Positions 16,300 through 31,884 of a stretch of DNA of 64,000 nt are shown here, piece by piece; within the stretch, counting starts at the first letter, position 1, and each line of letters opens with the position of its first letter. The stretch spans positions 28,158 to 92,157 of the forward strand of contig JAKLJX010000022.1 in the NCBI GenBank assembly GCA_023150945.1, given 5' to 3'. The notes beneath the pieces were generated by a model, which was given only the letters and a program-made list of their open reading frames with translations, was not told the origin of the DNA and searched no databases. Origin of the DNA: a bacterium. GTDB lineage: Bacteria > Zhuqueibacterota > Zhuqueibacteria > Zhuqueibacterales > Zhuqueibacteraceae. A program made the position numbers and the translations under genes.

Positions 16300-17331
16300 T
16301 CAAGTGCCGTTTTGGTTGGAGGAAGGGGAGGAGGGTGCGTCGCCAGCAATCGGCAGGCGCGGAAGCGCATGGCCTCCATCCGATGCGGAGGTTGGTGCTG
16401 GGCGCTGTCTTTGGGGCTCGTGCTCATGACAGGGAAAGCCGCTGATCTCCGCGGCGATCTTGAGATAGGCATTCTTGATGGCAAGTTCGTAGTTTCTTTT
16501 CTCCCGCCAGGTGCCCCGCTTCCACCAGTGCGCCGCTGCCACGCCGTTGAGGTGCCACCATCCCATTTGATTCACATGATCAGCCGGCACTGGGAAATCA
16601 CGCTGAACGATCAATTTGGTGGTGCCGTCATCTGCAACCAGGCGATCCTGCCAGCGCTGCGAGGTGACTGCGACCAGGCCATCATTGTCACCTTCTCTGG
16701 CATAGGTAATTTGCCAGGTCTTTTGAAACGGAAAGAAAGTCAACTCGCGCCGCTGCCAGCCGGCATAGGTTTGATAGATGACGGAATTGCTCGCTTCGGC
16801 ATTGCGCGCGCTGGCGTTGAACTCCCGGCAGGCGGCGGTGGTGAGGCTCTGAAAGCCCTCGAGATTGATGACCTTGCGCAGCGACTCGATGATTCTGGTG
16901 AGGCCGAATTCCAGGAACCAATCGGCCACACTGGCGCCCAAGTGCGGCGTGCCCAACGTGGTGAGGGAAGCGACCTGATCGGCCATGCCGTGCTGCACGA
17001 TCATGTGGCGGGCATCCAGGCCGCCCATGCTGTGGCCGATGAGATGAACTTTGGGCTGGCCGGTCTCCGCCAGGATTTTGCGAACCTGCGCTGCCAGCTC
17101 ACGCGCCCGGGTGTCGACGTCAGCGGCAAAGCTCACGCTGGTGGCGAAAACCTCATAGCCGTGCCGGCGCAAGTGGCTGGCAATGCCTTTGAAATAGTGC
17201 AGGCGATCCGCCACCCGGCTGTCTTCATGCAGATTCAGCTTGCGGATGATGAAGTCGATGAGATAATCCGGACGGGTGATGCCGTGTGCCAGAATGATCG
17301 GATAACCGTGCTTCCCATTCATGAGGCCCAA
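16300..17331 (-). CDS. Alpha/beta-hydrolase lipase/esterase with no signal peptide
   Basis: PIILAHG, GHSMGG nucleophile elbow, TLGTPHLG, DNDGLV (Asp), ADHVNQMG (His). Confidence 0.85.
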   Translation of the reverse strand: MGLMNGKHGYPIILAHGITRPDYLIDFIIRKLNLHEDSRVADRLHYFKGIASHLRRHGYEVFATSVSFAADVDTRARELAAQVRKILAETGQPKVHLIGHSMGGLDARHMIVQHGMADQVASLTTLGTPHLGASVADWFLEFGLTRIIESLRKVINLEGFQSLTTAACREFNASARNAEASNSVIYQTYAGWQRRELTFFPFQKTWQITYAREGDNDGLVAVTSQRWQDRLVADDGTTKLIVQRDFPVPADHVNQMGWWHLNGVAAAHWWKRGTWREKRNYELAIKNAYLKIAAEISGFPCHEHEPQRQRPAPTSASDGGHALPRLPIAGDAPSSPSSNQNGT

Positions 17332-17543
17332 CCCGGACGAATCGAAACCGCAGCGTCGCAGAGAAGGCGGAGAACGTCGCTTTTGGAGGTGACCAATCTG
17401 CGATCACGAGGATTCCGCGGTTCAACTGTCTGCTTGGTGGATAGAAATCTCTCGGAGTTTTGTTCAGAGCCTGAAACGCAAAACGCGATGATTGCCTGGA
17501 GCACTTTGCAGGTGCCGGAGCCGGTCATGCGCAATGGCTGGCG

Positions 17544-19283
17544 TCATTTGCCAAAGAAAAAGAAGATCACACTCGAAGCAAACAGGCCGATCCACAAGAA
17601 GGGCGGAGCGCCCTGCACGAAAGCCACCACGCCGCCGATGATGCACGAGCCTGCCATCAAGCCGCTGCGCAAGCCGCGCAACGGGTTTTCCTGGCGCGGC
17701 GCGTTGAAGATTTGTTGCAGATAGCGCGAAGTTTCCGCGATGAACTCCGGTGCGCGCACCAGCGCATCGACCAATTCCGGCATGCCGCTGAAAAACTGCT
17801 GCAGCAGCCGCACGGGGTCATAGTGTTCGTTGTAAATGGCGTGCACGTGGCGCCGCGACAACGCCGGCACGTCGAGATGGGGATCCAACTGCAAGCCCAC
17901 GCCCTCAAACGTCACCAGCGCCTTCACCATTAATGTCATTTCCACCGGGAAGAAAATGCGAAACCTGCCACCGAGGCGCAGCGATTCGAGGATGAGCTGC
18001 GCCAGGCTCAGGCTGCCATCGGAGGCATGCAGCAAGTAGCGCCGGGACAAGTCAGTCACCGCGCGCCGGAAGCCGGTGGGGTCACCGCCTTCGCCCGGGC
18101 GCGCCATGGCCATCAAGTAGCGCGCCGAGCCGGTGATGTCGCCGTTAACCAGAGCGTGGAAGTAGTACAGCATGCTGAGCTTCATCTTCTCGTCGAATCG
18201 CCCGACCATGCCGAGGTCGATGAATCCGACTTTGGGGCCGGGCAGCACGATGAGATTGCCGGGATGCAAATCAGCGTGAAAAAAGCCGTCGGCATAAAGC
18301 ATCTTGATGATGGCGCCGGCGCCCAGATCGATGATGCGTTGCAGATCTTCCTGGCTCAGTTCCTGCACCTTGGGATCGCCGGGCTTCAGGCCATCGAGAT
18401 AATCCATGCACAGCACGTCGCGCGAGCTTAGCCAGTGATGAATTCTGGGGAAGACCACGTCGGGGTGGCGGGCAAAATTGGCGGCAAAAATTTCGGCATG
18501 ATCGGCCTCATATTTCAGGTCGATTTCTCTTTCGGTGTAGGCGCAAAACTCGTTGATGATCATTTGGGGCTGGTAGCGCGGCAGCAGCCATTCCAGGAGA
18601 TGGGCAAACAATTGCAGCAGCTTGATGTCAGCCAGGATGGCCTCGCGAATGCCGGGCTTGATCACTTTGATGACGACGGTCTCGCCGGTGATGGTCTGTG
18701 CCAGATGGGTTTGCGCAATGGAAGCGGAGCCGATGGCTTGCGGTTCGAGGTGCGTGAACAGCTCGGTCAGCGGGCGGCCCAGGCTGGCGGCAATGATTTC
18801 CGCGATGGCTTCGAACTTGACCTCGGGCACGCGGTCCAGCAGTTGTTTGAGCTCATCGGTGATTTCACGCGGCAGGAGGTCTTCGCGGATGGCCATGATC
18901 TGGCCGAGCTTGATGTAGGTCGGCCCCAGCAGCTCCAACCGCCGGCGCAATTGCACGGGCCAGGGCTGGTCGCGCAGTTCTTTGAGAACGAAGGGCCGCA
19001 CCAGTAGCGCCAGAAAACGGGAGCCGGCGGAATGCAGATACTTGCGTTTGTCGGCAGGGAGGCGCTGCACCGCGGCGAGATGGCTGCCCATGAGCAGGCC
19101 GAACAAATGGCGCAGGAGCAGGAAAAAACGGCGCCCGACCCGCGGCCGGAAAACCGGCGGTGCTGAGGCCGTGGCGTGGAGGTGATACTTGTGGTTGGTG
19201 GCAGGCTGAAACACCTGCACGCGTGCCGCCAGCGGGGGGGAGGCCTCCGCCGCCGGCGCGGGCATGGCTGTGGCTCTTTCCAT
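17544..19283 (-). CDS. ABC1/AarF/UbiB-family atypical kinase with C-terminal transmembrane hairpin
   Basis: GPTYIKLGQ, GSASIAQTH, IKVIKP, FFHADLHPGN, IDLGMVG. Confidence 0.9.
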   Translation of the reverse strand: MERATAMPAPAAEASPPLAARVQVFQPATNHKYHLHATASAPPVFRPRVGRRFFLLLRHLFGLLMGSHLAAVQRLPADKRKYLHSAGSRFLALLVRPFVLKELRDQPWPVQLRRRLELLGPTYIKLGQIMAIREDLLPREITDELKQLLDRVPEVKFEAIAEIIAASLGRPLTELFTHLEPQAIGSASIAQTHLAQTITGETVVIKVIKPGIREAILADIKLLQLFAHLLEWLLPRYQPQMIINEFCAYTEREIDLKYEADHAEIFAANFARHPDVVFPRIHHWLSSRDVLCMDYLDGLKPGDPKVQELSQEDLQRIIDLGAGAIIKMLYADGFFHADLHPGNLIVLPGPKVGFIDLGMVGRFDEKMKLSMLYYFHALVNGDITGSARYLMAMARPGEGGDPTGFRRAVTDLSRRYLLHASDGSLSLAQLILESLRLGGRFRIFFPVEMTLMVKALVTFEGVGLQLDPHLDVPALSRRHVHAIYNEHYDPVRLLQQFFSGMPELVDALVRAPEFIAETSRYLQQIFNAPRQENPLRGLRSGLMAGSCIIGGVVAFVQGAPPFLWIGLFASSVIFFFFGK

Positions 19284-19302
19284 GATGCCTGGGTTTCGTA
19301 AA

Positions 19303-19339
19303 ACAGAAAAAGCTGTCGAACTGCGACAGCTTTTTCTGT
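19303..19339 (-). terminator. Strong hairpin with U-tract between the phasin and ABC1 kinase genes
   Basis: acagaaaaagctgtcg-aactg-cgacagctttttctgt: 16-bp perfect inverted repeat; T-run follows the GC core on both strands. Confidence 0.75.
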
Positions 19340-19496
19340 AAATCTCCGGCGCCTAGGCAATCACACTTGTCTGCCTGTCCGAAATTGATGACCGGCCGCG
19401 CCTGGATCAGCGCAAATGAACCATATGTAATCCCGTGAATCTCACATCATAACCGGCCGGTCAGCAGATCAAACTTTCGGACCTTCACATCAAACA

Positions 19497-19982
19497 TCAC
19501 ATGGCTTTGGCCTTGGGACCGGTTTTTGTAGCCTCCTCCAATCTTTGCACCAGCGCCGCCACGCTTTCCGTGAGCTTGTCGACTTTCTCGGAGAGGATCT
19601 TCACCTCGTCACGGGCAGCTTCGGCCGGCCGCTCCGCCGGGCCGATGACTTTCTTCCGCACGAATTCGGCGGCGTCATCCAGCCGGGCAAAAACGTCGTG
19701 GGTGAATTGCTCCACCTTTTCGCTGACATAGGTGGGCGCCGGCTCGCCGTTGGTCTTCATGGTTTTGCCGTTTTTCTCCACCATCTCCCGGCCGCGCTCG
19801 ACGAACCGGTTGAACAGCTTGGTGCCTTCCTTGTCGATCGTGGAGAATACGCCCAAGCCCGCCAGCCAAATCTCACGCGAGGTCTTGGAGATGCCCTCTT
19901 GCAGCACCTGCAAGGTGCCCTTCGCGTCTTCCACCATTTGTTCGACGGATTTGTGCTCCATCGTCTCTTTTTCGTGAGTCAT
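19497..19982 (-). CDS. Phasin-family (PhaF/PhaI-like) granule-associated protein
   Basis: SREIWLAGLGVF...EGTKLFNRFVERG and C-terminal coiled coil RDEVKILSEKVDKL; SD AAGGAG before ATG at 19982. Confidence 0.82.
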   Translation of the reverse strand: MTHEKETMEHKSVEQMVEDAKGTLQVLQEGISKTSREIWLAGLGVFSTIDKEGTKLFNRFVERGREMVEKNGKTMKTNGEPAPTYVSEKVEQFTHDVFARLDDAAEFVRKKVIGPAERPAEAARDEVKILSEKVDKLTESVAALVQRLEEATKTGPKAKAM

Positions 19983-20369
19983 AATGCACTCCTTTCGAGA
20001 GCTTGCCTCTCGGTTGAATCGCACGTCTCCTGAAAGCGGGTTCGTGGCTTTCTCCTGAATGCCGGCTGCGACACTTAAGCTCTGCGAATACGGAGGCACC
20101 GAAAAGACCGTCCGGACGGCTCTAAACTGACTTCCACTAAAACTTACACGATTGGGCTTGTTGGGACTTGCACATTCCCGCCCGGACGGTTATTCCATCT
20201 TCCATCTTCCTCACAACACGGTGTCTGCCAGGAAACCGCGCCGAAGGCATGCAATTCAAACAACAATCAAATTTGCAATACTCAGGCCACCATTTCCAGC
20301 AGTGGCGCCTCCAATTATTCTGGATTTATCTCATTAAATTCGGTCAAAATTTGCCAGCTTTTCGCAAGG

Positions 20370-20876
20370 TTAGGAATTCTTCCCTTCTCTTTTCTCATCC
20401 TTGCTGCTGGACGCAGGCGGCGGAGGGGGCGCATCGCCAACGCTCTCTGCGCCGGCCTCACCAGTCGCAGGCTGACTCGCCAGCGCGCGAATAATCCTCT
20501 CCAAAGATTCAACCCGACGCTGCAATTGCCGGAGATCCTCGGCGTGGTCGCTGCTGAACAGCTTGTTGATGGCGCCCGGCATCAGAGCGCCAATGCCGTG
20601 GCGCACCTGTTCCAGCCCGCCGTCGATGAGGTTGCTGCCGACCCGGATCAAATCATGCAACAGATCCGTGGTGAGCGGATTGCGGCCTCTTTTCCCTTCT
20701 TCGAGAATCACCTGGGTGAGGGTTTGGGTGGTGATGTCCTCGCCGCTGCTGTTTTCCACCACCTGAACATCGACACCCTTGCGAATCAAGCTGGCGATTT
20801 CTTCGAGAGAAATATACCGGCGCTCCTCGGTGTCATAGAGCTTGCGGTTTTCGTAGCGTTTGATGAGGCGATTCAT
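20370..20876 (-). CDS. phaR: PhaR-like DNA-binding regulator (PHB accumulation regulator N-terminal domain)
   Basis: IKRYENRKLYDTEERRYISLEEIASLIRKG...GEDITTQTLTQVILEE matches the PhaR N-terminal signature. Confidence 0.82.
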   Translation of the reverse strand: MNRLIKRYENRKLYDTEERRYISLEEIASLIRKGVDVQVVENSSGEDITTQTLTQVILEEGKRGRNPLTTDLLHDLIRVGSNLIDGGLEQVRHGIGALMPGAINKLFSSDHAEDLRQLQRRVESLERIIRALASQPATGEAGAESVGDAPPPPPASSSKDEKREGKNS

Positions 20877-20889
20877 ATTCTGGCTCGAA

Positions 20890-20996
20890 TATAACACACC
20901 GCGTTATAAAAGTCAAGGCGAATTTGACGCAATGCGTAACAAATAGAACGAACCACAGCGTACTGAACCACAGAAAATCTATTAATAAAAATAGAT
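20890..20996. promoter_or_regulatory. AT-rich divergent promoter region with inverted and direct repeats (candidate operators)
   Basis: TATAAC-N7-GTTATA (20890-20908), ACGCA-A-TGCGT (20927-20937), GAACCACAG x2 (20950, 20965), ATCTATT-N6-AATAGAT (20977-20996). Confidence 0.5.
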
Positions 20997-21338
20997 ATTA
21001 GTGAATGTGCGATGATTTCAGTTTCCTTATCCTTGCCGCATCGCGTTAGAGAAAACGCCAAAAGATGACGCAACATGTAATGAGAATTGCCTGCAGTGCT
21101 CCTGCATCGTTTCAGCATTCGTGCGCCGGTGCGCAGGGCGGCATTTGGCGACACCTGTGGTCTCGGCGCGGCCGACTGTGACACCCCAAGTTTTCAGAAT
21201 TGCGAAAAATGACAATTCCCGCGAGGCCGGTTCCCGTCACGCCGCCAATAAAATCAAACAAAGCTGAAAGCGATCATCGGCGTGATTGTTGCACAAGCAC
21301 CGGCCAGAAGCATTTGCTCTGTCGGCAAGGAGGCGCGG

Positions 21339-22481
21339 ATGGAACGATATGCAATCGATCTGGCTGAGACGGAATTGAAGGCACAGGTCAGCGAAAACCG
21401 GAAGCACTGTGATCGCCACCTCGACCATGACTTCGCCGTCAAGCTGGTCAAATACGTGCTGGCTCCACTCAACGATTGCTATTTCCGCTCGGAGTTCATC
21501 GGATTCGACCCGCTGCCGGAACGCAACCATCCCGACCGGCCGCTGATTCTCGCGAGCAACCATGCCGGCATGGCTTTTCCGTGGGACGGCATCATTTTCA
21601 TCTCCCAGCTTTTTCGCCGCAACAATTATGATTTCTCCAAAGCGGTGCGCGCGCTCACCTCGCCGATGCTTTCACAAACCACGCTGATGAATCCCTTTCT
21701 GGTGAGCAATTTCTGGAAGAAAGTCGGCAGTGTCGATGCCACCACGCTCAACGTCGAGACCATGATGCAGCAGACCGAGATGAACTTGTTGATCTATCCG
21801 GAAGGCGTGCCCGGCATCGGCAAGGGCTTCGACAAACGCTACCAGTTGCAGCGTTTTGCCACTTCCTTCATTCGCGTCAGTCTGAAGTACCGCACCGACA
21901 TCATTCCGTTTGCCACGGTCAACAACGAGTTCATCAATCCCTATGCTTACCAGTCCGCGACCGTCAACAAAATCGCGAACCTGCTCGGCATCCCCTTTCT
22001 GCCGCTGGGACTGATGACGGCTCTGATTCCCTTTCAGCCCTGGCTGTTCTACTTTGCCTTTCCCGCCAAACTCACTTATGTGATGGGCAGGCGCATCAAA
22101 CCCTACGAGATGATCGACAAACCGCTGAATCGCATCACCGAGCAGGACATCAACCAACTCACCATGCTGGTGCGGCGCCAGATGCAGGCGGAATTGCAGG
22201 AAGCGGTCCGCCGCTACGGCCGCCAGCCGTACGCGCTCAAGGAGTTTTTCACCACCTGCCGCCAGCAGGTGCGGCGCTTTCCCTATTTTCTGCCGTGCTT
22301 TTGGCCTTCGCTGTTTGCGGAGGTGGAACGGCGCAGCCGGCAGCGCGACGACCTGCCGTGGGACATGAGCCTGTGGGCCGGACTCAAGGCGTTTCTGCGG
22401 CGGCCGCTGAGCTTGGCGTTTTTTGTGCCGGTGCTCGGCTGGATTCCGATTCTCTGGCGCGGTTACACCAACAAATCCTGA
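21339..22481 (+). CDS. Lysophospholipid/MGAT-like acyltransferase (PlsC superfamily, MGAT/DGAT2-like subgroup)
   Basis: LILASNHAGMAFPWDG, LIYPEGVPGIGKGFDKRYQLQRF, DIIPFATV; SD AAGGAGG before ATG 21339. Confidence 0.8.
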   Translation: MERYAIDLAETELKAQVSENRKHCDRHLDHDFAVKLVKYVLAPLNDCYFRSEFIGFDPLPERNHPDRPLILASNHAGMAFPWDGIIFISQLFRRNNYDFSKAVRALTSPMLSQTTLMNPFLVSNFWKKVGSVDATTLNVETMMQQTEMNLLIYPEGVPGIGKGFDKRYQLQRFATSFIRVSLKYRTDIIPFATVNNEFINPYAYQSATVNKIANLLGIPFLPLGLMTALIPFQPWLFYFAFPAKLTYVMGRRIKPYEMIDKPLNRITEQDINQLTMLVRRQMQAELQEAVRRYGRQPYALKEFFTTCRQQVRRFPYFLPCFWPSLFAEVERRSRQRDDLPWDMSLWAGLKAFLRRPLSLAFFVPVLGWIPILWRGYTNKS

Positions 22482-22485
22482 CACC

Positions 22486-23118
22486 ATGCATCACGCTGCC
22501 CTGCACCTCGCGCTCAAGCTGGACTACAATGAAATCCCGGTGCCCGAGCGCATCGTCATCCAGTTGGAGCCGGGCGAAATCCGCCTGCTCAAACGCATTC
22601 GCTATCATCAGCACAGCACCGATCCGCTGCGGGCGGTGAAACTCAGCTTGCGTTACGGCGCCGGCCATCATTTGCTGATCGCGATGGAGCTTGCCGGCCG
22701 GATCGTGCTCATTCCCGGCGGAGAATTCCGCTTTGGCGGCACGCGGTTGGTGCTGGTGTGCAAGCCGACGATCGCGCACAACCGCTTGACGTTGCACAAG
22801 GCCACCATCAAGGAAATCGACATGCCGTTGATTCCGCGCTTCTTCGAGGCTTTCGTGCGCGAGCTGGTCAACAAGAGCTTCCTGCCCAACCTCGGCCACT
22901 CACTCAACTTTGATCTCGAGAGCATCCTCGACGAAGTGCGGAAGAAGGTCAACGATTTGGAGCCGATCAACCTCAGCATCGGCAAACAGCATTTTCTCTT
23001 TCGCATCTCCCCCAACATCGAAGACGGCGAGCACGAGCTGACCCTCTCGCATGACGCCATCGTTCTGAAGCTGCACCTGCAATTCACGCCGGTGTTCGAG
23101 ATTTACAGCCGGCGCTGA
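22486..23118 (+). CDS. Hypothetical beta-rich cytoplasmic protein (possibly DUF4403/TULIP-like)
   Basis: Starts 4 nt after the acyltransferase stop; alternating long beta-strands with one long helix; no recognisable catalytic motif. Confidence 0.6.
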   Translation: MHHAALHLALKLDYNEIPVPERIVIQLEPGEIRLLKRIRYHQHSTDPLRAVKLSLRYGAGHHLLIAMELAGRIVLIPGGEFRFGGTRLVLVCKPTIAHNRLTLHKATIKEIDMPLIPRFFEAFVRELVNKSFLPNLGHSLNFDLESILDEVRKKVNDLEPINLSIGKQHFLFRISPNIEDGEHELTLSHDAIVLKLHLQFTPVFEIYSRR

Positions 23119-23184
23119 GCCGGCGTCGGCGCGCGGCGCACCGGGATTGGGATGATTCCGGCCGCGATCCACCACCGCCTTCGC

Positions 23185-23979
23185 TCACGTCTTGTCCTTC
23201 TTGTCGCGAATGTCCTTCAGCAGCTTGGCGGCTTCGGCCTGGTGTTGCGGGTCTTCCCATTGCGCCCGATCCAGCGCGATGCAAGCCTGCAATTGCTCAC
23301 GCGCTTCCTGGTAGCGCTCCAGTTTGATGAGCGTGCGGCCGTACTCCAGGCGGTGGACGGGTTTCCGGCCGTCGAGCGCCACGGCTTGGGCAAACATCTT
23401 GGCCGCCTCTTCCAGCGAGGCGCCGGGCGGCACGCCGCCATAGATGACTTTGGCCGCCGCCTTCATTAACCAATCCAGCGTGGCGATGTTGTAATTCCAG
23501 CGGCCGAGGATGTGATAGGCGCCGTCATGCCGCGGATGGAGGGCAACCGCGCGTTCGGCTTCTTTTTGCACTTCCTTCGAAAGCCGGATCTTGGTCTTGC
23601 CACCTTCGAACAAAGCAACGCGGCCCACGCACAGGGCCAGGGCAAAGTGCGATTCCGCGGAATCGGGATAGAGTTTGACGGCCTGCCGCGCCAGGCTGTC
23701 ACCTTGCAAGTAGATTGCCTTGGCCTGCTTCTTGTCCTTCTGCTCGAAGGTTTTGCCGACATCCGCGCAGGCGCGCGCGGCCTTCCACAGCGCTTCGTAA
23801 TTGTTGGGATCCATCTGCAGCGCAGCGCGGAAATTGCGCAACGCGCCGTCATTGTCGAATGCAGCATACGCTGCGTTCCCCTGCGCCAAAATGCGCTCCA
23901 CCCCGTCTTCTTGCGCGCGGCACTCACGGCTCAACGCCACCAGCATCAGCAGCACGGCCACCAGCCATCGCCAAATCAT
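23185..23979 (-). CDS. Exported TPR protein resembling the RMDN (regulator of microtubule dynamics/PTPIP51) TPR domain
   Basis: Sec signal MIWRWLVAVLLMLVALSRECRA; ALWKAARA, SHFALALCVGRVA, AYHILGRWNYNIA...AAAKVIYGGVPPGASLEEA pattern. Confidence 0.72.
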   Translation of the reverse strand: MIWRWLVAVLLMLVALSRECRAQEDGVERILAQGNAAYAAFDNDGALRNFRAALQMDPNNYEALWKAARACADVGKTFEQKDKKQAKAIYLQGDSLARQAVKLYPDSAESHFALALCVGRVALFEGGKTKIRLSKEVQKEAERAVALHPRHDGAYHILGRWNYNIATLDWLMKAAAKVIYGGVPPGASLEEAAKMFAQAVALDGRKPVHRLEYGRTLIKLERYQEAREQLQACIALDRAQWEDPQHQAEAAKLLKDIRDKKDKT

Positions 23980-24610
23980 GAGATTTCCTCCTCACCGTGG
24001 GTTTTGAGAGACCTCGGATCTTGCATCATTCCGCCTGGGTCGAATGGTTCACTTCGCCGGCCAAAGGCCCCGCGGATTTCACTGCGCTGAAGCCACTAAA
24101 AAAACTCAATAATCATACCATCCCATGACGCAGTGCGTGAACTTGACGGACGGCGCAGCCGAGTGAACAAAGTTCAGGAAATACAGCCAGCGGTGAGCGC
24201 TACCGCGTCTGATTTCGGGGCCGGCCGGTTCTGACCCGGTAGCGCGAACCTGCGCTGATTTCCCAACATTGCGAAGCGTTTTCGAAAGAGTAAGAATTTT
24301 CGCGGTTTCGCATGAAATCCAAAATCCGGCGAAAACCGGCCTCCAGGTGGTAACTGAAACACTCTCAACCAGTTGAATCAGCGCGCCGGCAGCCGCAGCC
24401 AGCGGCACTTTTGCCGGAGCCGGTGGAACAGTTATTGAACGTCATTCAGCGGAATGGCCCGCCTGATTAGCACGATCAGCCCGCCTGAATTCGGTTGCAT
24501 AAGTATTCCTCGGTTGCCTGTCGAGCCGCTGGCTCGCCAGGCGACACCGGCTGAGTCTCCTATCCTAATCAACTGTTCTTCATATAAAACTCTGATGAGA
24601 AGGAGGACTT

Positions 24611-25885
24611 ATGCGAAAAGGGCTGCTGCTATTATTGTTGCCCCTCCTGGCCGCACATTCTCTGCAGGCGAGCGGCTTCAGTATCTATGAATTTGGCGGT
24701 CGTGCCTCGGCCATGGGCGGAGCCGCGGTGGCGTGGGCTTGGGACGGCTCCACGATATTCTACAATCCCGCCGGCCTGGCGTATCTCGATGGCACGCGGA
24801 TATATGGCGGGACCACACTGATCTTTCCCAACAGCCGCTTTGTCGGCGCTGCGCCCGTGTTCAGCAGCGCCATGTATGAAACCCGCGACACGTTTTTCTA
24901 TCCCATCAACTTCTACTTTTCCCATCGCTTCACTCGGAAGTTTGCCGCCGGCCTCGGCGTCACCAATCCGTTTGGTTTGGGAGTGGAATGGTATGATGAC
25001 TTCTCCGGGCGCGGGTATTCCAAGAACGCGCAATTGAAATCGTTCTACATCTCGCCGGTGGTGGCCTATCAAATAACCCCGAATTTCAGCATCGGCGGCG
25101 GCGCAGACCTGGTGCTCGCCAGCGTGAAGTTGGAAAAGAACGTGTTTCTCTTCGACAGTCCGGGCTCGCCGGGCTATGAAGTGGGCGACGTGACGCTGGA
25201 GGGCAACTCCAAGCTGGCGCTGGGATTCAGCGCCAGTGCCATGTTTCGCACCGCGCGGCTGGGTTGGGGCATTCTCTATCGCCACTCGATCAAGAATGAA
25301 TTCAAAGAGGGCGAAGCGGACTTCACGATTTTTGACAATCTCACCGTGCCCAATGCCGGCGCGCTGGCGCGCACCCTGCTGCAGGATCAAAAAGCCAACA
25401 CGGCCATCGAATTTCCCAATCTCATCGCCACCGGCATTCACTACAAATTCACCGATCAGCTTGCGCTCGAGGCCGATTACATCTGGTTCAATTGGTCGGT
25501 GTTCAATGAAATCGCGCTGGACTTTGCCAATGACCGGCTGGATCAAACCATGCTGGAGGAATATGACGATTCCTGGCAGGGCCGGCTCGGACTGCACTAT
25601 CAGTTGAACGATGCGCTCGCGTTGCGCGCCGGTTATATCTACGACAAGACGCCGCAGCCGATTCAAGCGGTCAGCCCGCTGCTGCCAGATGACACGCGCC
25701 ACAACTTCAGCCTGGGCGCGGGCTACACGTTCGGCAAGTATCAAATCGATGCCGGTTACATGCTGGTGCTGCTGGGCAAGCGCACCACTCTCGAAAATGG
25801 CGTGGGCAGGAACTATCACGGTTTCGACGGCACGTATAATTCCCGCGCCGATTTGCTGTTCGCCAGCTTTGGCTACACCTTCTAG
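24611..25885 (+). CDS. fadL: FadL/OmpP1/TodX outer-membrane long-chain fatty acid/hydrophobic compound channel
   Basis: Signal peptide then ASGFSIYEFGGRASAMGGA, FYNPAGLA, NPFGLGVEW, LRAGYIYDKTP, LPDDTRH; C-terminal YTF. Confidence 0.88.
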   Translation: MRKGLLLLLLPLLAAHSLQASGFSIYEFGGRASAMGGAAVAWAWDGSTIFYNPAGLAYLDGTRIYGGTTLIFPNSRFVGAAPVFSSAMYETRDTFFYPINFYFSHRFTRKFAAGLGVTNPFGLGVEWYDDFSGRGYSKNAQLKSFYISPVVAYQITPNFSIGGGADLVLASVKLEKNVFLFDSPGSPGYEVGDVTLEGNSKLALGFSASAMFRTARLGWGILYRHSIKNEFKEGEADFTIFDNLTVPNAGALARTLLQDQKANTAIEFPNLIATGIHYKFTDQLALEADYIWFNWSVFNEIALDFANDRLDQTMLEEYDDSWQGRLGLHYQLNDALALRAGYIYDKTPQPIQAVSPLLPDDTRHNFSLGAGYTFGKYQIDAGYMLVLLGKRTTLENGVGRNYHGFDGTYNSRADLLFASFGYTF

Positions 25886-25954
25886 CGGCGCGGAGCACCA
25901 GCCCGTGATGAATTGGAATCGTGACAATCATGCGTTGTGACCGTGGAGGTCGAT

Positions 25955-27391
25955 ATGCGAAAGTTGACCCATGTGTTGTGCCTTCTCAGTTTGGTTTGGT
26001 GGCTGGGCTGCGGCGTCAAGACACCCGAGCAGCCGGAGCTGAATATCACCGCCAATCAACTCGTCCTCAGCAAAATGGTGGCGCTCGGCAACAGCCACAC
26101 CGCCGGGTTTCAATCCGGCGGTTTGCGTGATGATTTCCAGCAGCACAGCTATCCGTTTTTGATTGCGCAACAAATCGGCAAGGCCGGTGACTTCGAGCTG
26201 CCGCTCATTGCCGCGCCCGGCATCGGCAGCACGCCGGGCAAGCAGCCGCTCAAGCTGGAGAATGGCAAGATCGTGACCCCGGATTTGCAGGTGTCGCCGA
26301 CTTCGCTGTTGTTGAGAGCTTTGCTGGCGCGGCCTTATGACAATCTCGGCGTGCCGGGCGCGACGTTACGCGACATGCTCAACGCCACCGGCGCCGCCAC
26401 TTCCGCGACCGGCACGAACTCCTTTTTCGATCTCGTGCTGCGCAATCCCAACCTCGGCAACACCACGCCGCTGCAACAAATCGCGCTGCTCAATCCCACG
26501 CTGGTGTTGCTGTGGATCGGCGACAGCGACGTGCTGGGCGCGGCGTTGAGCGGTGGCAATCCGGCACTGATTACGCCGCTCTCCGATTTTCAAGCCCGCT
26601 ACACGACGCTGCTGACCGAGTTGCGCCAAAAGACGCACGCCGCCCTCGTCATGGCGAACGTGCCCAACGCCACGGACCTGCCCTACCTCAACACCATGGA
26701 CTTTATCTTCCGGCCGATTCCTGCCCTGGGAATCACCGCGCCCGTGCCGGTGGTGTTCGACGCCAAATTCCAACCGGTGGACTTCGACCCGACGGCGAAC
26801 ACGCTCTACGTGCCGTTGATGACGGAAGAAAAGGAAGTGGCACACTTGACTCTGCCGGCGCTCAGCGCGTATCAAACCGGCCTTGGCATTCCTGACGGCG
26901 CCACGTTGCTGCAACTGGGTCTGCCGGTGGCGCAGGCACAGGCGTTGGAGCAAGGCATGCGCGCTGCCGGCTTGAACCCGACCGGCCAGCCCTTCCCGGG
27001 CACGATGTCGATCACCGCCGCGGAGAAGCTTGCCATCCAGCAGGCGGTGGCGGGATTCAACAGCACGCTGCAGACGCTCGCTGGCCAGTTTCAAGCGGCC
27101 ATCGTCGATTGCAACAGCTTGATGGCCACACTCAATGCCACCGGCCTCGAGGGATATTCCGGCCGCTTTGTGCTGCTGGATCCGCAGAACACCGCCTTCA
27201 GTCTGGACGGTGTGCATCCCAACAACGGCGGCTACGCGCTGATCGCCAACGCCTTCATCGACAAGATCAACGCCACCTTTCAACTCGCCATTCCCAAGCT
27301 GAATCCTGCGGAGTACAAAGGGCAGTACCTGGGCGCGGCAGTGACCGGTGCCGCAGCCGCAGCGGTCGCGCAAGTTCAGGCGCTCTACTGA
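25955..27391 (+). CDS. SGNH/GDSL lipolytic lipoprotein
   Basis: Lipobox WLGC; block I ALGNSHTAG, block II NLGVPGA, block III WIGDSD, block V SLDGVHPN. Confidence 0.82.
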   Translation: MRKLTHVLCLLSLVWWLGCGVKTPEQPELNITANQLVLSKMVALGNSHTAGFQSGGLRDDFQQHSYPFLIAQQIGKAGDFELPLIAAPGIGSTPGKQPLKLENGKIVTPDLQVSPTSLLLRALLARPYDNLGVPGATLRDMLNATGAATSATGTNSFFDLVLRNPNLGNTTPLQQIALLNPTLVLLWIGDSDVLGAALSGGNPALITPLSDFQARYTTLLTELRQKTHAALVMANVPNATDLPYLNTMDFIFRPIPALGITAPVPVVFDAKFQPVDFDPTANTLYVPLMTEEKEVAHLTLPALSAYQTGLGIPDGATLLQLGLPVAQAQALEQGMRAAGLNPTGQPFPGTMSITAAEKLAIQQAVAGFNSTLQTLAGQFQAAIVDCNSLMATLNATGLEGYSGRFVLLDPQNTAFSLDGVHPNNGGYALIANAFIDKINATFQLAIPKLNPAEYKGQYLGAAVTGAAAAAVAQVQALY

Positions 27392-27576
27392 GGCGTGCTC
27401 CCCTCTCCGCAAATCTGATTGTCTCAGCCAGCATCTTGCCACCCGCGGGAATCGCTTCTTTTGCGCGGCGCCGGCCGGGTGGCAGGCTGCGGAGAGTCCC
27501 ATACCGCGCCCGTGCGCGGCGGAAGCACAGCCTGAGTTTGAATGAGTGCCGAGGTGTTTCTGTGAAGGAGGAGGAG

Positions 27577-29457
27577 ATGGAGATCAAAGACTATCAAAAC
27601 ATTCATGCGATGGTGCAAGAAACCATTGCGCGGCGGCCCGGGCAACCCGCCTATCGCTGGTTTGGCGAAGGAGGGAACCTCGAAGCGGTGACCTGGTCGC
27701 AATTCTATGATCATGTCAAGCAGGTCGGCCGGAGTTTGATCGCGCTGGGCATCAATCCGGGCGACAAGATCGCGATCCTGAGTTACACCTGCTATCGCTG
27801 GGTGGTGGCGGACGTTGCCACGGCCAGCATCGGCGCCTGCACGGTGGGCATCTATCATTCCAATTTGGCGCGCGACTGCAAATACATCATCAATCATTCC
27901 GACGCCGTTTTGCTGTTTGCGGAAGATGAAGTGCAACTCAAGAAAGCGCTGGAAATCCGGCCGGGAATTCCCAATATTCGCCGCGTCATTTTGTTCAAAG
28001 GCGCGGCCACGGACGGCTGGGCGATGACGTTCGAGCAGTTTCTGGAGTTGGGGCGGGAGGTGCCGGAGGCGGAATTCGAGCGGCGCACGCGGTTGCCCGT
28101 GCCCGGCGATCCTGCTGCCATCGTTTACACTTCGGGAACCACCGGCCTGCCGAAGGGCGCCGTGCTGACGCACGACAATCTCACTTTCACGCCGCAATCG
28201 GTTTGGCAATGTGTTGACGTGTGGGAGGGCGACGGCCAGTTTCTGTTTCTGCCGCTGGCGCACGTGTTCGCGCGCCAATGCGTGAGTTTTGCCCTGCTCG
28301 CCGGCACCACCACGACATTCACGCGCAGCATGGAAACCATCGTGGAAGACATCAAGATCGCCAAGCCGCAATGGTTTGCGAGCGTGCCGCGCGTCTATGA
28401 AAAAGTCTATGCCAAAGTGTTGAGCAATGCCGAGGCCAAGGGCGGACTGGCGTTGAAAATTTTCCGCTGGGCCTGCGGCGTGGGCGACCGCGTGAGTGAT
28501 CTCAAACTGGCGAAGCAACCGATTCCTGCGCTGCTGCACTGGCAGTATGCGCTGGCGACCAAGCTGGTGTTCCACAAGATCCACGCGGCGCTGGGCGGCC
28601 ACTTGCGCTGGTGTATCAGCGGCGCCGCGCCCATGAGTCCGTCGGTCGCCAAATTTTTCCACGCCGCCGGCATTCTGATTCTCGAGGGCATTGGCATGAC
28701 GGAGAACACCTCTTTCACCAATGTCAACCGCCACGACAACTATCGTTTCGGCTGGGTGGGCCAGCCGGGGCCGGGCATCGAACAGAAAGCTGCACCCGAC
28801 GGCGAGATCCTGTTTCGCGGCCGCAATGTGATGAAGGAGTACTACAAAATGCCGGCGGAAACCGCCGAAACCATCACGCCCGAAGGCTGGTTGCGCACCG
28901 GCGATCTCGGCGAGATCGATGCCGAGAATTTCCTGCGCATCACCGGCCGCAAAAAGGAGCTGATCATCACCGCCGGCGGCAAGAACATTGCCCCATCGCC
29001 GATCGAGAATCTGCTCATGACGTCGAAGTACATCAGCCAGGCCTGTGTTTTGGGCGATCAACGGCAATTCCTGTGCGCGTTGGTGGTGTTGGATCCGGAA
29101 AACATCAAAGCCTATGCGCAGGAGCACGGCATTGCTTTCACCATCATCGATGAGCTGCGCGGCCAGGATCACATCAAACGCTTGATTGAAGCGGAAGTGG
29201 CGGCGAAAAATCGCGAGCTGGCGTCGTTCGAGACCATCAAGAAGATCCGCATCGTGCCGGAGTTCACCATCGAGAATGGCCTGCTGACGCCCACGCTCAA
29301 GATCAAGAAGAACCTGGTGGCGGAGAAATACCGGGCAGAAATCGAAGCGATGTACGCGGAAAACAACCTGCGCGAGGACGCGCGTTTGAACGGCTTCCCC
29401 TTTGGCCGTGAGGCTGCTACCGGCGCACAGCCGTCAGGCAAGAGCGTGCCGTTTTGA
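27577..29457 (+). CDS. fadD: Long-chain fatty acid-CoA ligase (AMP-dependent synthetase)
   Basis: YTSGTTGLPKG, FLPLAHVF, EGIGMTEN, GWLRTGDLG, RKKELIITAGGKNIAP, TPTLKIKK; SD GGAGGAG before ATG 27577. Confidence 0.9.
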   Translation: MEIKDYQNIHAMVQETIARRPGQPAYRWFGEGGNLEAVTWSQFYDHVKQVGRSLIALGINPGDKIAILSYTCYRWVVADVATASIGACTVGIYHSNLARDCKYIINHSDAVLLFAEDEVQLKKALEIRPGIPNIRRVILFKGAATDGWAMTFEQFLELGREVPEAEFERRTRLPVPGDPAAIVYTSGTTGLPKGAVLTHDNLTFTPQSVWQCVDVWEGDGQFLFLPLAHVFARQCVSFALLAGTTTTFTRSMETIVEDIKIAKPQWFASVPRVYEKVYAKVLSNAEAKGGLALKIFRWACGVGDRVSDLKLAKQPIPALLHWQYALATKLVFHKIHAALGGHLRWCISGAAPMSPSVAKFFHAAGILILEGIGMTENTSFTNVNRHDNYRFGWVGQPGPGIEQKAAPDGEILFRGRNVMKEYYKMPAETAETITPEGWLRTGDLGEIDAENFLRITGRKKELIITAGGKNIAPSPIENLLMTSKYISQACVLGDQRQFLCALVVLDPENIKAYAQEHGIAFTIIDELRGQDHIKRLIEAEVAAKNRELASFETIKKIRIVPEFTIENGLLTPTLKIKKNLVAEKYRAEIEAMYAENNLREDARLNGFPFGREAATGAQPSGKSVPF

Positions 29458-31145
29458 GCCGTGCGGCTCCGGACGCGGCCAATCGTACTTGCTCAACACT
29501 CAACGTGATGCCATCGGACATGCGACCGCTTCCGTCTCGTGATTATGACTACCTCGTCATCGGCTCCGGATTTGGCGGCGCCGCCGCCGCGCTGCGCCTT
29601 TCCGAAAAAGGCTACCGTGTTCTGGTGTTGGAAAAGGGCAAATGGTTGAGGGCGGAAGACTTTCCCAAGCGCAACTGGAATTTGAAGAAGTGGCTCTGGT
29701 TGCCGGCGCTGCGTTGTTTTGGATTGTTCAAAATCACCGTTTTCCGCCACGTTGCGATTCTCTCCGGCGTGGGCGTGGGCGGCGGGTCACTGGTTTACGC
29801 CAACACGTTGGCGATTCCCAAAGCCAGGTTCTTTGCCGCCGAGACCTGGGCGCATCTGGCGGACTGGGAGAAGGAGCTGCACGAGTTTTATCCCGTGGCT
29901 TTGCGTATGCTGGGCGCGGCGCCCAATCCCCGCCTGGAGGTGGGTGACCGCGCCCTGCAGCAGTTGGCCGTTGCGTTGGGCAAAGCAGAGCATTTCAATG
30001 TGACCGATGTGGCGGTCTATTTCGGCGAACCGGGAGTGACGGCGCCGGATCCTTATTTCAACGGCAAAGGCCCGGAACGCACCGGCTGCTGCTTCTGCGG
30101 CGGCTGCATGTTGGGCTGCCGCTACAATGCCAAGAACACGCTGGACAAGAACTATTTGCATTTTGCCCAGCAAAACGGCGTGAAGATTCAAGCAGAGGCG
30201 GAAGTCTACGATGTGATCCCGTTGGATGGCGGACCGGGTGCGTCCGGATATCGCGTCAAGTGGCGGTCGTCCACCAAATATTTCAAAAGGCGGGGCGAAT
30301 TCACCTGCCGCGGTGTCGTGTTTGCCGGCGGCGTCACCGGCACGGTCAAGCTGCTGCTGAAGCTGCGGCAGACTTCGCTGCCGCAGCTCTCCGACCAAGT
30401 CGGCGCGGGCATTCGCACCAACTCGGAGAGCCTGATCGGGGTGACGACGTTCGACCGCGAGACCGTTTTCTCCGAGGGCATTGCGATCGGCTCGATTCTG
30501 CATACCGACGAACACAGCCACCTCGAGCCGGTGCGCTATTCTGCCGGTTCGGGCTTTTGGCGCCTGCTTATGTCGCCGCTGGCTTACGGCAGCAATGCCT
30601 TCAGTCGCGCCGCCCGGATCATTGGCGATTTGCTGCGGCACCCGCTCGACAACTTGCGGCTTTTTCTGGTGGATGATTGGTCGAAGCGTACGCAGATCCT
30701 GCTATTCATGCGCACGTTGGAGAGCACGCTGCGGTTTTCGCGCGGCCGCCTGGGGATGAAGTCCACGCTGGCGCAGGGCGTGGCGCCCACGCCCTTCATG
30801 CCCGAAGCCAAAGAGCTGGCGGAGCGCTTCAGCAAGATTGTGAATGGCAAACCCACCGCACTTTCCACCGAGACGCTGCTCGGAATTCCCACCACGGCTC
30901 ACATTCTCGGCGGCGCAGTGATGGGCCAGGATCGCAGCGCAGGCGTGATCGACAAGGATAATCGCGTGTTTGGCTATGCGAACATGTACGTCTGCGACGG
31001 CAGCATGATCTCCGCCAATCCCGGAGTCAATCCCTCACTCACGATATTGGCGCTCACCGAGCGGGCGATGAGCAAGATTCCGCCGTCCCTGCCCGAGCCC
31101 GAGGTCAGCAGAGAGGTGGCAAATGATATTGCACTGGAAACGTGA
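29454..31145 (+). CDS. GMC-family FAD oxidoreductase, cholesterol oxidase ChoD-like
   Basis: YDYLVIGSGFGG, GVGVGGGSLVYAN, CCFCGGCMLGCRYNAKNTLDKNYL, TAHILGGA, NPGVNPSLTI. Real start may be 29508 or 29520. Confidence 0.82.
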   Translation: MSRAAPDAANRTCSTLNVMPSDMRPLPSRDYDYLVIGSGFGGAAAALRLSEKGYRVLVLEKGKWLRAEDFPKRNWNLKKWLWLPALRCFGLFKITVFRHVAILSGVGVGGGSLVYANTLAIPKARFFAAETWAHLADWEKELHEFYPVALRMLGAAPNPRLEVGDRALQQLAVALGKAEHFNVTDVAVYFGEPGVTAPDPYFNGKGPERTGCCFCGGCMLGCRYNAKNTLDKNYLHFAQQNGVKIQAEAEVYDVIPLDGGPGASGYRVKWRSSTKYFKRRGEFTCRGVVFAGGVTGTVKLLLKLRQTSLPQLSDQVGAGIRTNSESLIGVTTFDRETVFSEGIAIGSILHTDEHSHLEPVRYSAGSGFWRLLMSPLAYGSNAFSRAARIIGDLLRHPLDNLRLFLVDDWSKRTQILLFMRTLESTLRFSRGRLGMKSTLAQGVAPTPFMPEAKELAERFSKIVNGKPTALSTETLLGIPTTAHILGGAVMGQDRSAGVIDKDNRVFGYANMYVCDGSMISANPGVNPSLTILALTERAMSKIPPSLPEPEVSREVANDIALET

Positions 31146-31884
31146 GCCGCTTTTCCAGCTTTTTCCTTACGGGGCGCCCGAGCTGCAGGGGGTCCACAAC
31201 GTGTACCTGTCGTGGGCAGCGAGCGCCGCCATCGTGTTTCATCTTCTGGTGCTGGGATTCTGGTTGAGTGGGCGCCTGCTCAGTGAGGAGCCGGAGGTGC
31301 GCTTGGTGCACTTGCGGGTGATTCGGGATGTGGCCGAGCTCGGTCCGCCGCCTGCCATTGCCAGCGCGGCGCAAGCTCTGGCGATCAAAAGCCCGGTCGC
31401 ACGGCCGTCCGTTGGTGTGCCGGTTCCCGTTCCTGATGCGCTGATCACGCCGGAGGCGACGCTGGCAACTCAGGAGGAGATGTCCCAAATGCAGGCGCCT
31501 TTGACAGCCGGCGAAACCGGCGGGGATTCCATGGTGGTGGCGCCGGGCGCAATCCTTTACGGCGAGTCGGCGGAAGAGCCCGGCATGGATGAGTTCATTC
31601 CGTTCGAGATGCCGCCCATGGTGGTCAAGCGAGTGGAGCCGGTCTATCCTGAGCTGGCGCGCAAAGCCGGCCTGCAGAGCAAGATTGTGGTGAAGGCACT
31701 GGTGGACAAACGCGGGCAGGTCAAAAAAGTCGTACCGATTCAGGGCCACGAGATTTTCCACGAGGCGGCAATCCAGGCGATCATGCAATGGGTGTTCAAA
31801 CCTGCACTGCAGCAAAACGAGCCGGTGGCGGTGTGGGTGGCCGTCCCGCTGAACTTCGTGCTGAAAGAATCTCAGAAAAAGTAG
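31123..31884 (+). CDS. Energy transducer TonB-family protein
   Basis: N-terminal TM containing His (IVFHLLVLG), Pro-rich linker, C-terminal PVYPELARKAG...VDKRGQV...QWVFKPA...VAVPLNFVL. Confidence 0.8.
   Translation: MILHWKREPLFQLFPYGAPELQGVHNVYLSWAASAAIVFHLLVLGFWLSGRLLSEEPEVRLVHLRVIRDVAELGPPPAIASAAQALAIKSPVARPSVGVPVPVPDALITPEATLATQEEMSQMQAPLTAGETGGDSMVVAPGAILYGESAEEPGMDEFIPFEMPPMVVKRVEPVYPELARKAGLQSKIVVKALVDKRGQVKKVVPIQGHEIFHEAAIQAIMQWVFKPALQQNEPVAVWVAVPLNFVLKESQKK

Follow-up and report, generated by a model that had tools for sequence, protein, structure and literature searches.

The regulator PhaR and the phasins are taken as markers of polyhydroxyalkanoate (PHA), as in the PhaR-PhaP circuit of Cupriavidus necator and Paracoccus denitrificans and with PhaF/PhaI of Pseudomonas. 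PhaR binds hydrophobic surfaces unspecifically, and the phasin PhaP1 binds triacylglycerol (TAG) inclusions when expressed in Rhodococcus and Mycobacterium. To our knowledge, bacterial neutral-lipid storage is understood almost solely through the wax ester synthase/diacylglycerol acyltransferase (WS/DGAT) enzymes of Actinobacteria and some Proteobacteria. Another kind of lipid body is represented by the plastoglobules of chloroplasts and their cyanobacterial counterparts: the cyanoglobules of Synechocystis have a coat of fibrillin and carry isoprenoid enzymes and a START lipid binder together with three ABC1 kinases and a DGAT2-like acyltransferase, and a phasin marks separate polyhydroxybutyrate (PHB) bodies (PMC12223511). 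In this study, we analyzed a 64,000-nt stretch of bacterial DNA (positions 28,158–92,157 of contig JAKLJX010000022.1, assembly GCA_023150945.1; hereafter the window) from an uncultured activated-sludge metagenome-assembled genome (MAG; 7.37 Mb, 99.3% complete). Its 12 contiguous genes at positions 16300–31884 include those for a phasin, a PhaR-like regulator, an ABC1 kinase, an acyltransferase and a lipase. With about even confidence, we regard this cluster as a PHA-independent, lipid-droplet-like inclusion system.

The window shares with the PhaR-PhaP circuit a PF05597 phasin and a regulator with the PHB_acc_N domain. The phasin, which is amphipathic and helical, matched PF05597 with an E value of 2.4e-19 (70 bits; cut-off 28.8) and scored 59.8 bits against TIGR01837, under the cut-off of 94.7. 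The regulator matched PF07879 (PHB_acc_N) with an E value of 2.4e-26 (92 bits; cut-off 25), while its score against TIGR01848 (87.6 bits, profile positions 1–83 of 107 matched) fell under the cut-off of 109.45. Its 868 homologues are about 150 aa long and match PF07879 only. A difference from the canonical circuit is that the genome and the sampled phylum lack PHA synthases of any class. Neither PF07167 (PhaC_N, class I/II PhaC) nor TIGR01836 (class III PhaC, which also catches classes I and IV) gave a match in the window's own genome, and both detected the Caulobacter control. The same two models matched none of the 121 genomes in the phylum sample, which includes the window's own and in which 62 genomes have PF05597 phasin matches, and none of 20 cluster-bearing genomes from KSB1, Calditrichia and Bacteroidota. 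The sequence-only reading of this DNA had noted that the window encodes no PHA synthase; the statement is borne out and can be extended to the genome, the phylum sample and the 20 carriers. The partners also differ, being an acyltransferase of the lysophospholipid acyltransferase (LPLAT) type, an ABC1 kinase, a TULIP-like protein and a relative of TAG lipases instead of PhaC, PhaA, PhaB and PhaZ.

As a side observation, a second phasin-like family (about 105–130 aa) is spread over about 50 genomes of the 121-genome phylum sample (L015–L033, L037–L053), none of which has PhaC; its gene again adjoins an ABC1 kinase gene in at least four loci (L047, L049, L050, L051).

The candidate synthase of the system is the acyltransferase. 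Most gene labels of the sequence-only reading have Pfam support, but its label of MGAT/DGAT2-like for this protein has to be withdrawn. The protein matches PF01553 just above the cut-off (24.7 bits; cut-off 23). PF01553 was matched by 23 of 24 family members and PF03982 (DAGAT/DGAT2) by none, even at E values up to 5, and kinship with DGAT2/MGAT was therefore rejected. The homologues form 853 clusters at 90% identity and are about 50% identical across phyla, with the invariant blocks N-H-x-G-x-A-F-P-W-D (SNHAGMAFPWD in this protein) and YPEGVPGIGKGF, including an invariant YPEG. The protein shares with PlsC/AGPAT and other LPLATs, TMEM68-type TAG synthases among them, the weak PF01553 match, a predicted LPLAT-type fold, the conserved His and Asp and the PEG block. 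It differs in its motif I, H75-x7-D83 (NHAGMAFPWD) against H-x4-D of the PlsC/LPLAT superfamily, in the tightness of its family and in a long, amphipathic C-terminal extension of 130 residues. It is moreover accessory and absent from sister genomes, as described below. A Pro-rich hydrophobic segment, IPFLPLGLMTALIPFQPWLFYFAFP, was found by hydropathy at residues around 212–233. The AlphaFold2 (AF2) model (pLDDT 77, pTM 0.81) was nearest to PatA, LpxM and plastid GPAT, with probabilities of 0.96–0.99 and low TM-scores; these are generic LPLAT folds, and functional transfer from this search of the Protein Data Bank (PDB) was dropped. As judged by these comparisons, the acyltransferase appears to represent a distinct and highly conserved family of the PlsC/LPLAT superfamily.

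The earlier statement that WS/DGAT is not seen agrees with our searches, in which the models for WS/DGAT (PF03007) and DAGAT (PF03982) gave no match in 21 genomes, although a control panel likewise gave none. A scan of all open reading frames (ORFs) of at least 300 aa for HHxxxDG found the motif in a plausible context only in condensation domains of nonribosomal peptide synthetases, which is weak evidence of absence.

The gene starting 4 nt past the acyltransferase stop codon encodes an orphan protein with no Pfam or NCBIfam match, and its 24 homologues all belong to the KSB1 lineage. In a Foldseek search with the best AF2 model (pLDDT 78, pTM 0.62), the top matches were all TULIP proteins, namely LBP (4m4d), E. 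coli YceB (3l6i), BPI (1bp1), BPIFA1 and OrfX2/P47, with probabilities of 0.99–1.0, E values of 1e-3 to 5e-3 and TM-scores up to 0.59. We are moderately confident in the prediction that the orphan is a cytoplasmic lipid-transfer protein with a TULIP-type (BPI/LBP/YceB-like) beta-wrap.

To examine the conservation of the neighbourhood, we used an alignment of acyltransferase homologues to fetch 80 loci from species-representative genomes and mapped the window proteins onto them; many contigs are short, and the counts are lower bounds. Near the acyltransferase we found a phasin in 27 of the 80 loci, ABC1 in 26, HMG-CoA reductase in 18 (three phyla), DUF445 in 12, PhaR and Abhydrolase_3 in 11 each, GMC and FadL in 10 each, SGNH in nine, a family-I-type lipase and the orphan in eight each and FadD in four. 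Relatives keep the arrangement at 50–95% protein identity, and its core recurs in three phyla (KSB1, Calditrichia and Bacteroidota), so that the arrangement is far beyond chance. The whole set, including TPR-FadL-SGNH, is retained in the KSB1 relatives L054–L058 and L060. In a KSB1 relative at about 65% identity, lipase-ABC1-phasin-PhaR faces acyltransferase-orphan, followed by HMG-CoA reductase and GMC. Calditrichia loci (L063, L070, L080) retain lipase-ABC1-phasin(s)-PhaR, the acyltransferase and GMC. Many genomes of Cytophagales, Cyclobacteriaceae and Hymenobacter have the order acyltransferase-(esterase)-phasin-ABC1, often with GMC-FadL-SGNH on the opposite side and HMG-CoA reductase farther out. 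In L088, for example, SGNH, FadL and GMC are followed by the diverging acyltransferase, Abhydrolase_3, phasin, ABC1, DUF445 and HMG-CoA reductase. Two side observations concern these Bacteroidota forms: DUF445 membrane proteins stand beside ABC1 and HMG-CoA reductase (L088 1561–2763; L077, L086, L090, L098), and the SGNH gene of L088 is adjoined by an ArsA/Get3-like ATPase that carries an HSP20-like domain.

The tightest and most conserved pair is phasin-ABC1. ABC1 lies directly downstream of the phasin in the loci examined, and a search based on PhaR found PhaR-phasin-ABC1 consecutive in every context inspected. The sequence-only reading had treated the kinase as one item among twelve. The kinase belongs to the ABC1 family (PF03109, E 1e-59, 202 bits). 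Its best NCBIfam match is UbiB (TIGR01982), at 311 bits under the cut-off of 487.55, and therefore it is not a UbiB equivalog. It shares with UbiB/Coq8 the ABC1 domain and a C-terminal membrane anchor (two hydrophobic segments at residues 538–579 by hydropathy), but it differs in having no adjoining ubi genes, no ubiE/ubiJ context and a phasin as its partner in every locus.

The acyltransferase, the phasin and PhaR are also inherited together. In the window's order, 10 genomes have the acyltransferase, PhaR and a strong phasin, and nine genomes, including one of the same genus and two of the same family, have none of the three. Given this all-or-none pattern, the acyltransferase is an accessory gene tied to the phasin system and not a housekeeping PlsC. 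Nor does the co-occurrence rest on adjacency alone, because the phasin and PhaR of one genome (G058) are not on the contig that carries the acyltransferase. Taken together, the neighbourhood check suggested along with the sequence-only reading came out in its favour: the arrangement is conserved across three phyla, and the three genes are gained and lost together. A similar split was noticed in one Calditrichia MAG (JANQQU), which has phasin-PhaR-phasin-ABC1 on one contig (L138) and DUF445-acyltransferase-HMG-CoA reductase on another (L066); parts of the module therefore co-occur even when they are not adjacent.

Like canonical PhaR genes, phaR is preceded by repeated candidate operators over its own promoter. 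When the sequences preceding phaR in 10–13 loci were compared by k-mers and a position-weight matrix (PWM), a conserved palindrome emerged with the consensus TTACGCAaTGCGTCAAA and the core ACGCA-N-TGCGT. On the phaR side, candidate operators are 17-mers starting at 20890 and 20923, 33 nt apart. The phaR promoter, TTGACT-N17-TATATT, has the former site in its spacer and the latter, which is the best PWM match in the whole genome, just upstream of its -35 element. A second candidate pair starts at 21032 and 21064, 110–160 nt deeper in the divergent region. Every KSB1 and Calditrichia locus examined has paired sites with the 33-nt spacing ahead of phaR, and exact ACGCANTGCGT sites number six in 7.37 Mb, two of them in the cluster. 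The divergent geometry around phaR that the sequence-only reading had pointed out is thus real and carries conserved candidate operators. These putative self-operators fit a PhaR-like behaviour of the regulator, and their layout would follow the logic of the canonical PhaR circuit, from which the titration of the regulator by an inclusion surface is carried over by analogy. An additional candidate operator at 24124–24142 consists of TGACGCAGTGCGTGAAC followed by TTGACG, with an exact site at 24128 and a PWM score of about 14; it is kept with one mismatch in L054, a relative at 93%.

Two further PWM candidates for regulon membership were set aside. A site on contig C24 of the genome is intragenic. 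On contig C34, an operator-like intergenic pair, TGACGCATCGCATTAAA and TGACGCACCGCGTTAAA, 55 nt apart (27506–27577; L134 4506–4577), lies near a phage-type integrase and small ORFs without family matches.

The phasin gene itself appears to lack an operator of its own, since a comparison across loci found no shared motif in the phaR-phasin spacer, which is 83–166 nt long in several relatives; an operator upstream of the phasin was rejected on this ground. The phasin is probably co-transcribed with phaR, and the short, motif-free spacer suggests a phaR-phasin(-ABC1-lipase) transcript attenuated at a conserved terminator. The stem of this terminator, CAGAAAAAGCUGUC/GACAGCUUUUUCUG, is conserved across the KSB1 family (L054–L062, L001), and its loop varies among nine relatives. 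A stem conserved in sequence with a variable loop is unusual for a plain intrinsic terminator.

We found the cluster at 99–100% identity in metatranscriptome assemblies from several activated-sludge studies, and contig depth was used as a crude measure of expression. By this measure, the phasin mRNA dominates the cluster, with a depth of 36–330 against 2–13 for the other cluster genes and 70–90 for the neighbouring citrate synthase; the phasin is likewise the highest-expressed gene of the canonical circuit. Depth drops from phasin to ABC1 across the terminator hairpin. Single RNA contigs join acyltransferase-orphan (21725–23013), fadL-sgnh (24650–26716), fadD-gmc and gmc-tonB.

A separate observation concerns the 3' untranslated region (UTR) of the phasin mRNA. 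It appears as short RNA fragments of about 130–155 nt with adapters at both ends, at depths of 3,000–32,000 in two independent studies against 36–330 on the coding sequence, i.e., 30- to 400-fold. Its predicted fold has an energy of -70.6 kcal/mol (z -4.3), and a search of Rfam gave no family match, only sub-threshold, terminator-like ones. Conservation of the region does not extend beyond genus-level relatives, five of which preserve a long stem with compensatory changes. Adapter remnants in X28 and X37 give opposite strands, and the strand was deduced from co-linear contigs in X32 and X38. The RNA may be a stable small RNA derived from the 3'UTR or a very stable decay product.

On this basis, we propose the following mechanism. 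The PhaR-like repressor would bind the palindromic operator pairs that overlap its own promoter, between the divergent phaR and acyltransferase genes, and, by analogy with canonical PhaR, would be titrated off the DNA by the hydrophobic surface of the inclusion. Titration would free transcription of phaR-phasin(-ABC1-lipase) and probably also of the acyltransferase-TULIP genes. Phasin would be made in large excess because the terminator after its gene attenuates read-through into ABC1 and the lipase, and it would coat the inclusion. The monotopic acyltransferase would make a neutral acyl ester from acyl-CoA and an acceptor such as diacylglycerol, an isoprenoid alcohol or a quinol, and the TULIP-like protein would carry lipid between the membrane and the inclusion. 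At the inclusion surface, the membrane-anchored ABC1/UbiB-type kinase would regulate or extract lipid, and the signal-less family-I-type lipase would mobilise the store. In the window's genome, the FadL-SGNH-FadD-GMC operon would supply or process imported lipid, a position held in many relatives by HMG-CoA reductase. The stored lipid may be an acylglycerol or an isoprenoid ester: acylglycerols or wax-type esters are indicated by the TAG-lipase and HSL-type hydrolases and FadD, and isoprenoid alcohols or quinols by the repeated presence of HMG-CoA reductase, the similarity of the GMC enzyme to cholesterol oxidases and the membership of the kinase in the ABC1/UbiB family.

Such a system would resemble the actinobacterial TAG and wax-ester droplets (WS/DGAT Atf; TadA and MLDS/MLDSR of Rhodococcus) in having a neutral-lipid store, a coat protein, mobilisation by a lipase and a regulator, MLDSR being known to bind both DNA and droplets. 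It would differ in that no WS/DGAT homologue was detected here (with the control silent), in that the coat and regulator families are unrelated and in its ABC1 kinase and TULIP protein, which are absent from the described actinobacterial system. Full-text searches of the literature gave no description of a phasin-ABC1-acyltransferase module. What is new, within known inclusion coat/regulator or droplet systems, is an uncharacterised acyltransferase family and a new partnership of ABC1 kinases, and the product of the core is probably a type of bacterial fat droplet not described before.

Several points weigh against this interpretation. The acyltransferase matches no characterised neutral-lipid synthase family, neither WS/DGAT nor DGAT2, and the genome searches for WS/DGAT and DAGAT had no positive control, leaving the motif scan as their sole independent check. 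Canonical PhaR has a C-terminal, granule-binding PHB_acc domain (PF05233), which the profile search did not detect in the regulator. The predicted TULIP assignment rests on one of five AF2 models of uneven quality, the other four having pLDDT values of 34–65. About two-thirds of the acyltransferase loci, mostly from Bacteroidota, have no phasin or ABC1 within 8 kb; therefore the acyltransferase can work outside the module, or its partners sit elsewhere. The carrier is an uncultured organism known as a MAG, and it is from genes that we infer an inclusion and its contents. The re-use of PhaR and phasin for an acyl-lipid inclusion, as put forward in the sequence-only reading, stands in outline, with PHA synthase lacking and acyl-lipid partners conserved. 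Finally, homeostasis of membrane isoprenoid lipids would account for HMG-CoA reductase and ABC1/UbiB just as well as storage would.

This last point leads to the main rival, a module for membrane isoprenoid or quinone-lipid homeostasis without a storage organelle, which we consider unlikely but deserving serious attention. Here, ABC1/UbiB-type and phasin-like proteins would work on prenyl lipids (menaquinone, polyprenols, carotenoids) at the cytoplasmic membrane, the acyltransferase would remodel membrane lipid by re-acylating lysolipids or acylating quinols, the esterase would reverse this, and HMG-CoA reductase and GMC would tune isoprenoid flux. Genes for HMG-CoA reductase (HMG-CoA_red_N domain) adjoin the acyltransferase or the phasin module in L055, L057–L060, L066, L067, L069, L075–L078, L080, L086, L088, L090, L098, L108 and L136, and their presence near the acyltransferase in 18 of the 80 loci suggests a connection with endogenous isoprenoids. 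Prenylquinone biology is the known setting of ABC1/UbiB proteins, the Bacteroidota form repeatedly includes DUF445 membrane proteins, and the C-terminal transmembrane segments of ABC1 and the hydrophobic segment of the acyltransferase would suit a membrane location. The acyltransferase slr2103 of cyanobacterial droplets, moreover, has now been linked to acyl-plastoquinol (PMC12223511). However, PhaR and phasins are inclusion-surface proteins wherever studied, the hydrolases are of the neutral-lipid lipase type, and the phasin is expressed far above the enzymes, as would befit a coat. In addition, the window's genome has the full module without HMG-CoA reductase, as tblastn with two orthologues found no such gene in it; FadD and GMC are present where close relatives have HMG-CoA reductase. 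In this lineage-specific variant, the acceptor or the acyl donor may be imported.

A more specific form of the lipid-inclusion hypothesis, which we put forward as a rather improbable conjecture, is a plastoglobule-like organelle in non-photosynthetic KSB1, Calditrichota and Bacteroidota. It would hold isoprenoid-derived neutral lipid (e.g., acyl-menaquinol or polyprenyl, steryl or carotenoid esters) under a phasin coat, made by a new LPLAT family, controlled by ABC1/UbiB and coupled to HMG-CoA reductase. The functional set is shared with plastoglobules and cyanoglobules, comprising an amphipathic coat, an ABC1 kinase, an acyltransferase, a lipid binder and isoprenoid enzymes, compared here at the level of gene content. 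On the other hand, the coat here is a phasin and not fibrillin (fibrillin was not looked for), the acyltransferase belongs to PF01553 and not, like slr2103 and PES, to PF03982, the hosts (KSB1, Calditrichia, Bacteroidota) are non-photosynthetic, and the genes are clustered with a PhaR-type repressor. If this conjecture were true, the link between ABC1 and lipid droplets would be ancient and independent of photosynthesis, and the UbiB family would have a role in organisms without ubiquinone.

The broader lipid-inclusion interpretation would have consequences of its own. Annotations as "PHA" would be misleading in KSB1, Calditrichota and many Bacteroidota, and a large acyltransferase family, with more than 850 clusters at the 90% identity level, is nominated as a possible new lipid-ester synthase. 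In bacteria that lack ubiquinone, the phasin would become a partner with which ABC1/UbiB-type kinases can be tested, and the module would be a genetically compact bacterial counterpart to plastoglobules. Cultured carriers exist among Hymenobacter species: genes for the acyltransferase, Abhydrolase_3, the phasin and ABC1 are present in H. daecheongensis DSM 21074 and H. mucosus DSM 28041 (L114, L123). For wastewater biology, the module suggests how an abundant sludge bacterium hoards lipid.

The hydrolase bears on another rival, a PHA-granule system with an unrecognised synthase such as one of the alpha/beta hydrolases, which we judge to be very improbable. The phasin (PF05597) and the N-terminal domain of PhaR are bona fide PHA-associated families, and class III/IV synthases are likewise alpha/beta hydrolases of about 350 aa. 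The cluster hydrolase has 343 aa, the nucleophile elbow GHSMGG, no signal peptide and no transmembrane segment, and it matches Abhydrolase_1, PGAP1, DUF676, LCAT and Lipase_2 in Pfam. Its best PDB relatives are the family-I TAG lipases of Pseudomonas (P. aeruginosa) and Burkholderia (E 1.5e-17, about 100 residues aligned). The protein is thus a member of a family whose lipases are normally secreted, here without a signal peptide, and its earlier label of signal-less lipase denotes a true lipase relative. Because the nucleophile is Ser and not Cys, the hydrolase is not a synthase. The lipase follows ABC1 in KSB1 and Calditrichia loci, whereas a hormone-sensitive lipase (HSL)-type Abhydrolase_3 fills the slot in Bacteroidota; this exchange of non-orthologous neutral-lipid esterases favours an acyl-ester substrate and disfavours a hidden PHA polymerase. 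A hydrolase gene in the unit is also a feature of the canonical circuit, where it is phaZ. Furthermore, no PhaC-like sequence was found in 141 genomes overall, with the control genome positive, and the partners (acyl-CoA ligase, LPLAT, TULIP, FadL) are acyl-lipid proteins.

All 12 genes named by the sequence-only reading, which had not listed them in physical order, were confirmed by the ORF listing and profile searches (Table 1). The phaR-phasin-ABC1-lipase strand is transcribed leftwards from around 20880, and the acyltransferase diverges from phaR. An ABC-transporter ATPase and citrate synthase flank the cluster, and the phasin, PhaR, acyltransferase and ABC1 genes are each single-copy in the genome.

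Table 1. Positions of genes and other features of the cluster in the window
Feature	Positions	Strand	Basis or remark
Lipase	16300–17331	-	last gene of the phaR-phasin-ABC1-lipase strand
ABC1/UbiB-family atypical kinase, 579 aa	17544–19283	-	PF03109
Terminator hairpin between phasin and ABC1	19303–19339	-	perfect 16-bp stem
Structured phasin 3'UTR	19340–19496	- (strand inferred)	metatranscriptome depth, fold
Phasin, 161 aa, ATG at 19982	19497–19982	-	PF05597, PhaF/PhaI-type
PhaR-like regulator, 168 aa	20370–20876	-	PF07879
Two pairs of palindromic candidate operators	20890–21080		k-mer and PWM analysis
Acyltransferase, 380 aa	21339–22481	+	PF01553
Orphan protein, 210 aa, predicted TULIP-type	22486–23118	+	Foldseek on AF2 model
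Exported tetratricopeptide repeat (TPR) protein, Sec signal, RMD1-3-like	23185–23979	-	PF21033 (E 2e-16) and TPR families
Candidate extra PhaR-type operator between TPR gene and fadL	24124–24142		exact site and PWM
FadL/TodX-family outer-membrane channel, hydrophobic substrates	24611–25885	+	PF03349 (Toluene_X), E 9e-64
SGNH/GDSL hydrolase lipoprotein, lipobox L-G-C	25937–27391	+	PF00657, PF13472
Long-chain fatty-acid--CoA ligase, FadD11-like	27565–29457	+	PF00501 (AMP-binding), E 7e-68
GMC flavoenzyme, cytoplasmic	29454–31145	+	GMC_oxred_N, GMC_oxred_C
TonB paralogue, overlaps end of GMC gene	31123–31884	+	PF03544 (TonB_C), E 1e-18

The right-hand part of the cluster is less uniformly conserved. 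FadL is linked to SGNH, GMC and the acyltransferase in Bacteroidota loci as well (L088, L090, L099, L101, L131), and the SGNH lipoprotein gene always follows fadL. The FadD-type ligase scored 363 bits against NF038343 (FadD11), under the cut-off, and has a paralogue with 52% identity elsewhere in the genome. The best PDB matches of the GMC enzyme are cholesterol oxidases (1coy/3cox and 1b4v, E 3e-20; the next GMC family at 3e-10) among the solved structures matched, which include no fatty-alcohol oxidase. GMC orthologues beside the acyltransferase are 68–79% identical in KSB1 and Calditrichia and 44–51% identical in Bacteroidota. The genome encodes three paralogues of TonB, one of them 64% identical, and no TonB gene was seen beside the module in the related loci mapped, so that TonB, by this comparison, is probably not a conserved member of the system. 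A feed of scavenged lipid, assumed in the sequence-only reading, is accordingly plausible for one variant, with FadL-SGNH accompanying the acyltransferase in about 10 of the 80 loci, but not in general, given the rarity of FadD (four of 80) and the lack of TonB conservation. The least probable rival, an ordinary lipid-scavenging or catabolic locus with PhaR, phasin and ABC1 beside it by chance, would suit the lipid-rich activated-sludge habitat and a FadL-SGNH-FadD-GMC-TonB run that reads as an uptake/activation operon with parts co-transcribed pairwise, but it is largely refuted by synteny, as the phasin-ABC1-acyltransferase core, whether or not PhaR and the lipase accompany it, is conserved in loci lacking FadL, FadD and TonB, the acyltransferase, phasin and PhaR are co-inherited, and the cluster has no beta-oxidation genes.

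The exported TPR protein is present in L054–L056, L058 and L060 and is conserved only within the KSB1 family. In two KSB1-type loci, a split frame of an AhpC/TSA peroxiredoxin (43 aa and 112 aa) lies between HMG-CoA reductase and GMC (L002 10832–11320, L136 3768–4256) and may represent a gene with selenocysteine or stop-codon read-through, or a pseudogene.

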